From positions 32,001 through 96,000 of the forward strand of contig JASFQK010000004.1 of assembly GCA_050115495.1 (NCBI GenBank): DNA of 64,000 nt, given 5' to 3'. This DNA is from Phycisphaerae bacterium (GTDB lineage Bacteria; Planctomycetota; Phycisphaerae; UBA1845; Fen-1342). Numbering within the stretch: the first letter of the stretch is position 1; each line of letters opens with the position of its first letter. The translations under genes and the position numbers were made by a program. The notes under the pieces were generated by a model. It saw only the letters and a list, made by a program, of their open reading frames with translations, ran no database searches and was not told where the DNA came from. Positions 30,299 through 36,652 of the stretch are shown here, in pieces.

Positions 30299-30886
30299 CT
30301 ACCGCCGGCGGAGCGCCAGGGCGCCCAGGCCCAGCAGCAGAAGGCTGGCCGGCTCGGGCGTGAGGACCGCGCCGTCGAACCAGATGTCGTACAGATTGAC
30401 GTCCTCGGGTGGCACCAGGTCGTTCACGTCGGCCATCCGCACTATGATGTTCGCGCCGATCTCCGCGCCGCCATCGACGGTGTACGACACGCCGTCGAGT
30501 TCCTGCCAGGCGTCGACGCCGGTGACGTCGTAGTGGGCCGAGGCGAGTGGAATGAAGCCGTTGCCGTCATCCCAGCCGATCTGGAAGCGGGCGATACCGG
30601 TGCGGTTGCCGCCACCGATGGCCCAGCCCCAGAAGTCGTAGGTGACGCCGTCCATGAAGACAGCGGTCGTGGTCTGCTGGATCTTGCGGTCGAGGACACC
30701 CATGGCCTCGGCGTTGAACCAGTCACCGAGGGTCTCGTTGCCGGGGGCGCCGTAGACGCCGTGCTCGTAGACGCCGCCGCCAACCCAGGGGGCGAGGCCG
30801 GTTTCAAACCCGGGGTTTTCGAGGAGGTTCGCGTTCGCCGCCGCCGCCAGCATCAGGCCCGCGACGAGTACACAAATGATGCGCAT
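30299..30886 (-). CDS. PEP-CTERM surface protein
   Basis: Signal peptide, NLLENPGFE, C-terminal TPEPASLLLLGLGALALRRR. Confidence 0.92.
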   Translation of the reverse strand: MRIICVLVAGLMLAAAANANLLENPGFETGLAPWVGGGVYEHGVYGAPGNETLGDWFNAEAMGVLDRKIQQTTTAVFMDGVTYDFWGWAIGGGNRTGIARFQIGWDDGNGFIPLASAHYDVTGVDAWQELDGVSYTVDGGAEIGANIIVRMADVNDLVPPEDVNLYDIWFDGAVLTPEPASLLLLGLGALALRRR

Positions 30887-31269
30887 TGCAGTCCTTCCTT
30901 ACTCCGCCCCCTGGCCACAGGTTGATCATATGCGACCGGCTGGAACCAAACAGATTCCGAACCTTTCGCCCATCACAACGACCCGCACATTCTAACCCGC
31001 GCGGATGGGCAGGTCCAAGCGTTTGTGGATCCGAGTTGACTCCCGGAAACGCGCACGCCGCACTCGACGGACCAGCCCGAGACGGACGCCCGGTTGCAGC
31101 GCCCGCCTCGTACGCCGGCCACACGTGCCATTATGACACGAAGGGGGACGAGGGGCATGATTCATAACTATTTGTGAATGCTTAGCTTGCGTTGATTCAT
31201 CCGCTGGAACGGCGTGTGCAACAGGTGGCAATGGCCGGCGTACGCGCCGCCAGACGGGAGAGTCGAAGT

Positions 31270-33888
<2,619 letters not shown>

Positions 33889-33972
33889 CCGCCGGCGGCG
33901 CTATCATCAGGCGGGACGAGCCCGCCGGCGGCGATGGCGCGGGGCCGGCATTGACTCCAGGAGGACGGCCTG

Positions 33973-34230
33973 TTGACCGGAAAACTCGCTCTGCTGGCGG
34001 CGTTTCTGCCGATCGTCGGCTACTGGCTGCGGGTGCGCTTCTGCTGAGGGCACCCCCTCGCGACGCTCGGTACGATCGTCATCATGTTCGGGTTCTTCAT
34101 CGCCTTCGGCAACGGCTACCAGGCGTGGCAGAAGGGGCCGGATCGTGGGTTCGGCATGGCCGCGATGGTTGTCGCCGGCCTGATCGCTCTTGGCATGCTG
34201 GTGGGGGCGACGGCACTCGTGCGACGCTGA
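33973..34230 (+). CDS. 85-aa three-TM protein with in-frame UGA after Cys (candidate selenoprotein; alternatively a pseudogene)
   Basis: AGGAGG RBS 8 nt before TTG; reads MTGKLALLAAFLPIVGYWLRVRFC*GHPLATLGTIVIMFGFFIAFGNGYQAWQKGPDRGFGMAAMVVAGLIALGMLVGATALVRR; TGA at 34045-34047. Confidence 0.55.
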
Positions 34231-34252: not shown

Positions 34253-35629
34253 TCAGTCGTAACGGAACGCGAGCATGTAGGATGTCGGCCAGATGGGGAA
34301 GGTGGTTGACATGCGGTGTCCTGCGTAGTCGCCACGGTTTGCACCGCAACGGTCGAAGAAGAAGCGGCACATTTCGGCGTAGCGCGGCCACGCCCGATCT
34401 TCCGCGGCGGCGATCTCGTTTGGCAGGATGCGCAGGTCCGGGTACTCGGCAATCCGATACGCCCAGCGGGCCATCTCGCTTTCGTGCATCCACGCGGGCA
34501 CCGGCGCTTGGCAGACCGCTTCGGGGATGCAGGATTTCGCGAACGACCGATGCAGGTACACGTCCACGATCAGGTTGCGCGTGGGATGGTCGATTGTCTT
34601 TATGAAGGCTTTGAACGGCGCGAGGGCCTGCTCGGGGCTATGCGGGATCGGATCCAGCCGGAACGCCACCACGATGTCGAAGCCTGCCCGCAATTGCTGC
34701 ACGTCTGCCGGATCGACGCACAGCCGCGCCAGTTGGCGAGACGCGGAATGCTCACGCAGCACCGCCGGCAGAGGGTGACTGCTGAACTCGGGCACGATGC
34801 AATGGTCGCTCCGTCCGGCGATGGGGCCACCCGCCGCATCGCGGATCTCCAAGCCGCTGTTGGGATCATCCGACCGGCGTGGGGCGAGCGGCTGCTCCTT
34901 CTGCGAGCCGACGTGGACGATCAAGGGGCGACCACCCGGGCTGGCCTGGTATCCGAGGTAGGCCAGCAGCATCGCGACTTCGACGATGTGACCCGGCTCC
35001 TGCGAAGGCATGACCAGCACGATCGCCCCGTTCAGATCGACCAGACTGCGATTGACGGCCAGGGCGTTCTCGAACGCCGCGGCCTTGATCGCTGCCGTCG
35101 ACGTTGACGCCGTGGAGGGTAGTTCTGCTTCAGGCTGAGCGCTGGCGGCTTCGACCGCCGGCACCTGGCTCAGCAGGTCCTTGAGTCGCGTCTGGCTGCG
35201 GTACTTCTCGTGCACGAAGGAGTCGAACTGCTCGACGGCCAGTTCGAAGCGATCGACCTGTTCCGGAGCCAGTCGTCGGTGTTTGATCGCCGCCGCGAAA
35301 CCGCGCATCGCCGCCGTCCCCGGCAGCGACCTGGCGATCTCGTCCCACCGGTTCGGTGACACCTGCGAAGCTCGCCACAGACGATAGCAGGTGGATCGAT
35401 CGACCCCCAACGCATCGTACAGTTTCCTCGGACTGCGGATGTGAACAGGTAATGCCTGGAGCACATCCAGAAGCGCCGATTGCAGACGTTCACCGTATCG
35501 CGCCAGATCTTCGGCGTGCGGCAACGAAGGCACACCGCGATGGGCGATCGTGCCCGCCGACGTTGTCTTGCGCTTCAGTTGCGTCACGTTTTCCATGAAG
35601 ACGGTTTCCGTCGCAGTCGTGCGTTTCAC
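34253..35629 (-). CDS. Hypothetical protein with N-terminal HTH-like segment (putative regulator)
   Basis: SPRKLYDALGVDRSTCYRLW resembles an HTH; long ORF; no family recognised for the C-terminal part. Confidence 0.6.
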   Translation of the reverse strand: MKRTTATETVFMENVTQLKRKTTSAGTIAHRGVPSLPHAEDLARYGERLQSALLDVLQALPVHIRSPRKLYDALGVDRSTCYRLWRASQVSPNRWDEIARSLPGTAAMRGFAAAIKHRRLAPEQVDRFELAVEQFDSFVHEKYRSQTRLKDLLSQVPAVEAASAQPEAELPSTASTSTAAIKAAAFENALAVNRSLVDLNGAIVLVMPSQEPGHIVEVAMLLAYLGYQASPGGRPLIVHVGSQKEQPLAPRRSDDPNSGLEIRDAAGGPIAGRSDHCIVPEFSSHPLPAVLREHSASRQLARLCVDPADVQQLRAGFDIVVAFRLDPIPHSPEQALAPFKAFIKTIDHPTRNLIVDVYLHRSFAKSCIPEAVCQAPVPAWMHESEMARWAYRIAEYPDLRILPNEIAAAEDRAWPRYAEMCRFFFDRCGANRGDYAGHRMSTTFPIWPTSYMLAFRYD

Positions 35630-35842: not shown

Positions 35843-36517
35843 CTAGCGCCCGCTTCGTCGACGGCTCAACACGAGCAGCGCCACGGTCGCCAGACCGAAG
35901 GTCGCCGGCTCGGGAACACCTTGGATTTGCAGCATTTGATCGGGGCCGTTCCAGAGACCGAACAACGGTTCGTAGGTGTTTGTACCGATCGAGTACCAGA
36001 TGGGCCGATCGCCGTTGGCGGCGTACGATCCCCATGCCGTCCATCCGGTTGGGGGTGCCGCTTCGATCGGGGACATGCCGATCCAGTAGTCGCCCGGAGC
36101 CAGCGCCATGTTCAGTCCTGAAGCATCGACCTTCTCCACATAGCGGCTCCAACCGGTTTCCGAATCCGTGAGTACCAGGGTCTCGACGGTGATGGGAACC
36201 TCGATGGCGAAGTCCATGGCGTTGACTTCCCCGAGCGCTTTGGGGAACACCACGAGGTTGGCCGTGGTGGCCGTTGGCGAATTGAGCGTGCCAAAGTAGT
36301 TCGACACCGTGTCGATGACCCAGCCTCCCGCGGGGACACTGATGTCATCCATCAGGATGAAGCCCGCATCCACGTCCGTCCAGGTTGTGGACGTGAGACC
36401 TCCGCCGACGGCGTTGAACACCGTGGAGTCGTACAGGACGTCCGCGCTGGCGTTGGTCGCCAGGGATACCACCACAGCCAGCACTGCCATAGCTGCCGCA
36501 TGACCTGTCATCTTCAT
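35843..36517 (-). CDS. PEP-CTERM surface protein
   Basis: Signal peptide (ASA-D), C-terminal VPEPATFGLATVALLVLSRRR. Confidence 0.9.
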   Translation of the reverse strand: MKMTGHAAAMAVLAVVVSLATNASADVLYDSTVFNAVGGGLTSTTWTDVDAGFILMDDISVPAGGWVIDTVSNYFGTLNSPTATTANLVVFPKALGEVNAMDFAIEVPITVETLVLTDSETGWSRYVEKVDASGLNMALAPGDYWIGMSPIEAAPPTGWTAWGSYAANGDRPIWYSIGTNTYEPLFGLWNGPDQMLQIQGVPEPATFGLATVALLVLSRRRSGR

Positions 36518-36652
36518 TACTCTTCTACCTCCTGCGTGCCGAAGCACTCCTCCAAAGTTGAAAGCGATGCACGTTTCGCCGGTGTGAAGCTTCTGAGCCG
36601 GACTCCTTCGTTCCCTTCCGAGAAGGCCCCCCGATCGGATCCATCCTCTCTT

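Follow-up and report, generated by a model that had tools for sequence, protein, structure and literature searches.

Does the short reading frame downstream of clpB, broken after 24 codons by a TGA, encode an intact protein, and if so, how is that TGA read? In the window (the whole 64,000-nucleotide stretch of contig JASFQK010000004.1 from a Phycisphaerae bacterium that was analyzed), the initial annotation had described a ribosome-binding site, a TTG start, 24 codons ending in TGC, the TGA and 60 further sense codons, and had proposed a candidate new selenoprotein. All of these elements are present in the sequence as described. The features of the locus, in order of position, are:

31192..33888, + strand: clpB, the upstream neighbor (Pfam), not a conserved partner (synteny test)
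33891..33949, + strand: GC-rich inverted repeat that separates the clpB stop codon from the ribosome-binding site (-40.8 kcal/mol, z -2.27), context only
33959..33964, + strand: Shine-Dalgarno sequence AGGAGG, 8 nt upstream of the start codon (sequence)
33973..34230, + strand: predicted selenoprotein gene of 85 codons, with a TTG start and a TGA stop at 34228-34230
33976..34038, + strand: helix 1, predicted membrane helix with a kink at the conserved Pro13 and Gly16 (AlphaFold2 2-10 and 12-22; hydropathy)
34042..34044, + strand: TGC for Cys24, vicinal to Sec, usual and dispensable in the family
34045..34047, + strand: in-frame TGA, inferred Sec25 (TGA in 20/20 aligned homologues, TGC in a tandem paralogue)
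34054..34131, + strand: helix 2, predicted membrane helix whose first codons overlap the SECIS (AlphaFold2 28-53; hydropathy)
34062..34080, + strand: putative SECIS hairpin with an 8-position stem and a GUA loop at 34070-34072 (covariation, synonymous constraint, selD apex)
34144..34224, + strand: helix 3, predicted membrane helix, missing in two-helix members (AlphaFold2 58-84)

GC3 in the frame is 0.83 before the TGA and 0.87 after it, where GC3-rich usage had previously been noted. Among 57 profile-found homologues, the start codon lies exactly 24 codons before the TGA in 30 and 23-27 codons before it in 52. A sequencing error is argued against by read-derived contigs that span the codon and keep the TGA: an identical contig from run X1 (depth 21.5), possibly the source of the assembly, carries it, and divergent contigs from runs X2 and X4 cross the codon with no change there among the differences listed. 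As to the surroundings, the inverted repeat at 33891-33949 is essentially single-copy in the genome and possibly a terminator or processing hairpin; no U-tract terminator was called at it. A convergent 458-codon ORF (34253-35629, - strand) without a Pfam match ends 22 nt from the selenoprotein stop. Two exported proteins are also encoded on the - strand, one at 30299-30886 with a PEP-CTERM-type tail that matches PF07589, and one at 35843-36547 with a similar tail and no match at 1e-3.

A search with the read-through protein yielded 26 matches (E<=1e-3) in 24 of 61 related genomes, its own included, and 25 of the 26 carry a TGA. At the 20 best loci, which share 27-71% identity, Cys-TGA is invariant and the TGA falls at the same codon in 20/20. 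The initial annotation had asked whether homologues hold Cys or a conserved TGA at codon 25: with few exceptions, TGA is kept there, rather than Trp or Arg. A profile search of the class gave 34 matches in 31 of 301 genomes; two were dropped as non-members, and the remainder resolve to 31 TGA genes in 29 genomes and one Cys paralogue. Scanning GTDB with a DNA motif returned at least 119 matches, of which at least 111 are members by flanking protein score and 8 were dropped; because the motif includes the TGA and the hairpin, these members show breadth only.

That the frame is a pseudogene, bears a sequencing error or has its TGA read as Trp is very improbable. Three homologues do have Trp at the Sec position, and the hairpin is unremarkable by energy alone; yet well over 100 genes, some with as little as about 27% identity, have this same TGA, independent contigs retain it, and TGA is an ordinary stop in these genomes, since this gene and many of its homologues end in it. 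With the TGA kept in homologues and the frame open on both sides, the nonsense-mutated pseudogene that had been left as a possibility is excluded.

The genome contains the genes for selenocysteine insertion. Matches to selA (532 bits), selB (302 bits) and selD (367 bits) all lie above their cut-offs, the selD gene itself has one in-frame TGA, and a tRNA-Sec is located at C24:83297-83391 (66.7 bits), so that all four selABCD components named for checking are accounted for. A second tRNA-SeC called by ARAGORN (C3:95769-95868) was rejected because it has no Rfam support, and odd-anticodon tRNAs (Val aac, Asn att) are among the ARAGORN calls at C39:7215-7291 and C46:33241-33326. In the class sample, selA is present in 39/39 genomes with a TGA copy and a TGA copy in 0/190 genomes without selA, a co-occurrence that, like the p-values, overstates the association because related genomes are not independent. 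Neither profile finds a TGA copy in 72 of the 111 selA-positive class genomes. The SelA match falls into two pieces (profile about 1-260 and 265-454) within one open frame in G019, G021, G023, G030, G185, G192, G315 and G009, which implies roughly 25-65 inserted residues in these genomes, which belong to the same family.

The hairpin that follows the TGA has a GUA apical loop beginning 22 nt after the UGA, as first described, and 7 of its 8 stem positions are paired. By energy it is ordinary: its z values of -0.38 to +0.30 make it no more stable than chance, and its free energy depends on the window folded, from -5.2 to -6.7 kcal/mol alone and from -9.6 to -15.8 kcal/mol with flanks (the bSECIS energy criterion is a minimum free energy of at most -7.5 kcal/mol; PMC13188914, in part). 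A hairpin of this position and shape follows 303 of the 135,940 TGA triplets in the genome (0.22%). Comparison with homologues is decisive. Pairing across the 8-pair stem reaches 90% in the alignment of 20 rows, where 16 cells carry changes on both sides; stem covariation is 0.357 vs 0.186 in shuffled alignments (0/500) and at most 0.134 when the stem is slid, and RNAalifold recovers the inner 6 pairs unprompted. The number of pairs with two-sided change (5) is not significant, 61 of 500 shuffles being as high.

Codon choice gives a second line of evidence. In the set of 47 genes collected with the protein profile, GGT encodes the loop Gly in 42/44 cases vs 52/388 for other Gly codons, and CTC encodes the Leu before it in 41/41 vs 125/570 elsewhere; the contrast is large, though kinship inflates the tests. 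The spacing from UGA to loop is 22 nt in 40 of the 47 genes, and in 2 others it is 19 nt. The selD hairpin shares the G-GUA-C apex, 33 nt after its UGA, and the TGC paralogue in genome G030 has lost the hairpin sequence. A control motif with TGC, TGT or TGG gave 74 matches in metagenomes, a different collection from the GTDB set used for the TGA motif, with 0 family members among them and a best score of 9.1 bits. Collectively, these comparisons argue that the hairpin is a selected RNA element.

The consensus bSECIS is a short hairpin whose loop begins with G and lies 16-37 nt beyond the UGA (PMC13188914, Fig. 2 legend), and the gene described here is alike in its short hairpin and G-first loop 22 nt after the UGA. 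With bacterial genes that carry the SECIS in the coding region (SelD of this genome; PMC13188914, in part), it shares the in-frame UGA, selABCD and Cys homologues; sel genes, a conserved UGA, the hairpin and Cys homologues were thus all found, which places it among bacterial SelB/bSECIS selenoprotein genes. It differs from the other members of that class in that its family has no known domain, rare Cys homologues and two hairpin types. SelB almost certainly reads the hairpin and inserts Sec25, and the proposal of a new selenoprotein is strongly supported by the conserved TGA, the conserved hairpin and the Sec machinery in the genome.

The family falls into two branches. In branch I, Cys precedes Sec in 42/47 genes and is replaced in 5/47, Gly follows Sec in 44/47, and His occupies the +2 position in 27/47, the remainder often having Asp, Ser or another residue. 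Branch II, made up of the more distant homologues, is one clade (support 99) in which Cys is found in 0/10 genes counted and Gly precedes the TGA instead. Its hairpin is of a different type, placed at the same distance from the TGA and with a UGG or UGC loop, and it too shows fixed synonymous codons (CTT in 10/10 vs 18/140; GGA in 8/8 vs 13/80). Because Cys is replaced in part of branch I and absent from branch II, Sec, not the Cys-Sec pair, is the invariant feature. The CU pair emphasized in the initial annotation is thus present in this protein, but its Cys is dispensable in the family and Sec alone is invariant. The underlying tree was built quickly from 88 columns; 58 of its 107 branches are open, it omits 62 of the 97 motif-found sequences, and it fixes neither the root nor the ancestral residue.

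Among the 80 matches listed with titles, members are nearly all Planctomycetota (including Phycisphaerae, Pirellulaceae, Gemmataceae and Isosphaeraceae), and the cultured Rohdeia mirabilis Pla163 carries a two-helix form (L066). Judged from these relatives, the window itself comes from a planctomycete lineage, probably Phycisphaerae. Single members among these matches occur in Thermoanaerobaculia, Limisphaerales and Paracoccaceae records, and one further member is labelled Acidobacteriota in the tree; those outside Planctomycetota may be transfers or binning errors. In 1.84 billion representative proteins there are 77 matches, mostly fragments that begin after the TGA, and most start near profile position 30; a word-indexed search of proteins, run with the alignment of 51 rows, gave 4. 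Cys-containing homologues comprise the protein records P0003, P0004, P0006 and P0061 and the paralogue in G030. In that genome a TGC (Cys-Cys) paralogue, which has gained a His-rich tail, stands in tandem with a TGA copy (L031:1108-1740); the two are sisters (support 99) and constitute a natural Sec/Cys pair. Two Sec copies stand in tandem in G002 (L023:1125-1752).

Several relatives depart from the common plan. Trp occupies the Sec position in P0005 and P0029 (protein records, in which it may reflect TGG or the gene caller's code) and in L222; the DNA behind P0029 was not found in JGI metagenomes. P0007 has Leu there, and two genomic branch-II relatives lack the TGA, one of them with Trp. Genome G244 carries an intact TGA copy, a Trp copy and a further branch-II copy (L224:1501-1602), in which another TGA follows three codons after the first and the C-terminus has diverged; this copy is probably broken. 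Long C-terminal extensions of 292 and 219 residues follow the Sec domain in L054 and L060, respectively, and in P0006 additional helices precede the Cys-Cys form. A junk frame in G076 and five half-length matches were dropped as non-members. The C-terminal three helices of LptF/LptG-family permeases (L181, L183, L185 and L187) match the family profile weakly (E 3e-7 to 2e-5 per genome), which may reflect composition or remote kinship, and were likewise left out.

The AlphaFold2 model, computed from the 20-row alignment with Cys substituted for Sec, places helices at residues 2-10, 12-22, 28-53 and 58-84 and the Cys-Sec pair in a loop (pLDDT 81.5, pTM 0.59). Structure searches returned generic helical bundles only (best Z 8.5, rmsd 2.8 over 76 aligned residues; best Foldseek E 0.78). 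The earlier description of an 85-residue protein with three transmembrane helices agrees with the three helices predicted here, but the conserved unit is two helices and the Sec loop: among the motif-found matches listed, 37 of 111 members stop after helix 2, 69 possess all three helices and 5 extend further, and some members carry an extra N-terminal helix. The family core, as it appears from these alignments, is helix, Sec loop, helix, with the third helix dispensable. Mean K+R counts are 1.15-1.3 at the N-terminus, 2.1-2.2 after helix 2 and 0.5-1.3 around the Sec loop. By the positive-inside rule, the basic residues at the N-terminus and after helix 2 place the Sec loop outside the cytoplasm; the predicted placement has a modest margin, and helix 1 is both kinked and short. 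The N-terminus is probably inside, with the Sec loop, located where helix 2 begins, on the outside.

What such a protein would do is a matter of graded likelihood. We put at about even chances the composite reading of a planctomycete-family membrane protein whose UGA is decoded as Sec via the hairpin and which likely serves as a membrane-anchored selenol redox centre on the outer face. The functional part of this reading, a membrane-anchored selenol redox centre facing the periplasm, is put forward tentatively, at slightly below even confidence. The selenolate would attack an oxidant or disulfide at the membrane surface; Cys24, where present, would close a vicinal selenenylsulfide, as in thioredoxin reductase (PMC10779653, in part), members without the Cys would have to draw on a thiol in trans, and re-reduction of the Sec centre could fall to an exported thioredoxin-like protein. 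Consistent with a redox role are the invariance of Sec, the usual Gly at the next residue and the lack of a recurring metal or transporter neighbor; most uncharacterized selenoproteins probably serve redox functions (PMC13188914, in part). Against it stand the lack of a thioredoxin fold, of a CxxU or UxxC motif and of a conserved redox partner nearby.

The C-terminal motif of thioredoxin reductase is Gly-Cys-Sec-Gly, and exactly G-C-U-G occurs in 9 of our 154 members. The mammalian enzyme has its vicinal Cys-Sec redox centre at the C-terminus, where the pair undergoes a Cys-Sec cycle (PMC10779653, in part). The family described here shares the vicinal Cys-Sec but has no flavin/NADPH domain and holds the pair in an internal membrane loop, not in a mobile tail, so that the analogy is chemical only. 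In a lipobox, a small residue precedes the Cys. Lipidation of Cys24, as in a lipoprotein, was rejected: the residue before the Cys is Phe or Tyr in at least 105 of the 154 members, most of which came from a motif in which the Cys is fixed and the preceding residue is free, and branch II lacks the Cys.

Two other selenoproteins, KCU-star and SaoC, are also small. Together with SaoL, SaoB, HgcA and MbdU they share with our family the vicinal Cys-Sec and the truncation in databases (PMC13188914, in part; bioRxiv 10.1101/2022.07.06.499078, in part). Unlike in those CU-motif selenoproteins, the CU here occupies a loop that joins membrane helices, its Cys is dispensable and the gene belongs to no conserved operon, and none of the 51 members searched has an NCBIfam match to any of the six. 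CC and CU motifs have been taken to suggest heavy-metal interaction (Haft and Gwadz, bioRxiv 10.1101/2022.07.06.499078, in part), and the Cys-Sec loop could accordingly bind a soft metal or metalloid (Cu+, Ag+, Hg2+, As3+) as a sink, a chaperone or a small MerT/MerF-like carrier, a reading we regard as unlikely, if worth retaining. The +2 His of more than half of the branch I genes and the His-rich tail of the Cys-Cys paralogue would suit it, and MerT (PF02411) is also a small three-helix membrane protein with paired chalcogen residues near positions 24-25, planctomycete MerT proteins likewise having a Cys-Cys pair after the first helix. The motif nevertheless differs, being C/SxxU in the "putative mercuric transport protein" selenoprotein (PMC13188914, in part), and homology was not detectable: hhalign against three MerT sequences gave a probability of 0.6% over 11 columns, and no member matches a Mer family in Pfam. 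The dispensability of the Cys and the frequent Asp, Ser or other residue at +2 also count against metal binding.

Genomic context bears on the same question. Across 112 loci, 37 of them shorter than 1 kb, no neighbor recurs beyond close kin, whether from a mer operon or as a metal-resistance, transporter or redox-partner gene; the largest neighbor cluster is a Ser/Thr kinase-like family at 7/112 loci and varying positions. The position directly downstream of clpB that the initial annotation had stressed is real in this genome and not conserved, a clpB match occurring at one other locus; the synteny test rejects a coupling to clpB, and the adjacency appears incidental. A regulatory leader role was rejected as well, because the downstream gene is convergent and the neighbors vary. 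On these comparisons the gene is a stand-alone one, with no conserved operon.

One partial exception concerns the sel genes themselves. Branch II lies behind selB on the same strand in 4 of 12 genomes, from two families, at distances of 68 nt (G092), 55 nt (G076), 995 nt (G085) and under 100 nt (G302). This arrangement, the invariance of Sec alone and a protein about as small as a membrane carrier of one Sec can be would fit a part in selenium economy, as a cheap Sec sink, a cell-surface selenium acceptor or a membrane sensor of selenium status. A selenoprotein gene, however, frequently lies in a cluster with sel genes that it does not serve; two of the four genomes belong to one genus, and no sel gene was found near the copies of the remaining 8 branch-II genomes or any branch-I locus within the DNA examined (172 loci, 119 of at least 3 kb). 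Most selA-positive class genomes also gave no TGA copy, and we consider this role rather improbable.

Full-length homologues with neither Cys nor Sec exist (P0002, P0018, P0021, P0023, P0032, P0035, P0037, P0056, P0067 and P0073), and the scaffold therefore persists without a chalcogen, perhaps with a chalcogen-free role; in P0032 and P0067 the chalcogen-free domain lies behind an N-terminal CxxC pair. Such homologues and fusions might indicate a small structural or regulatory membrane protein, remotely DUF4190-like, in which Sec is accessory to protein-protein contacts in the envelope. Helices 2-3 resemble three DUF4190-like sequences weakly (hhalign probability 15%, E 0.0017, 43 columns), but this match excludes the Sec loop, one of the three sequences was found by the family's own profile, and no member matches PF13828 (DUF4190). 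Given also the strong selection on Sec and hairpin across the phylum, this reading is highly doubtful.

The initial annotation had not recognized the family, and database searches agree. Among 20 members searched, any Pfam family that was matched had a single matching member at most (best E 0.005); among 51 members the same held for NCBIfam, where no match was to a selenoprotein model. The best match among PDB sequences had an E value of 1. All Rfam matches were below gathering scores, and the ESM Atlas, queried with two natural homologues, returned unnamed clusters only. By Pfam or NCBIfam model and motif, none of the 119 catalogued prokaryotic selenoprotein families matched (Table 1 of PMC13188914, in part, in which two entries lack accessions and for some the defining model comes from CDD or PANTHER). 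A description in the literature was not found, and preprint supplements, subscription journals or recent GenBank annotations may hold an earlier mention; Table S9 of PMC4807772 (in part) lists one unexplained "hypothetical" candidate. As far as these comparisons reach, the family is uncatalogued and spread across planctomycetes, its decoding of a known kind and its protein new.

Taken together, these results add a phylum-wide selenoprotein family to a 119-family catalogue that lacks it. The family was missed because only 24 codons precede the UGA, databases mostly hold the post-UGA fragment and Cys homologues are rare; current finders such as deep-Sep rely on Cys homologues (PMC12013277, in part). 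It is conceivable, though improbable, that this is an old, selenium-first microprotein family in which Sec is original, with two lineage-specific SECIS types, and which forms a membrane selenium or electron relay for the large selenoproteome that planctomycetes export. If true, this would give bacterial selenium biology a further, unrecognized component that one lineage cotranscribes with selAB. At 50-85 residues, these proteins are among the simplest possible membrane scaffolds for one selenocysteine, and so small a scaffold makes the role of selenium at the bacterial cell surface directly testable.
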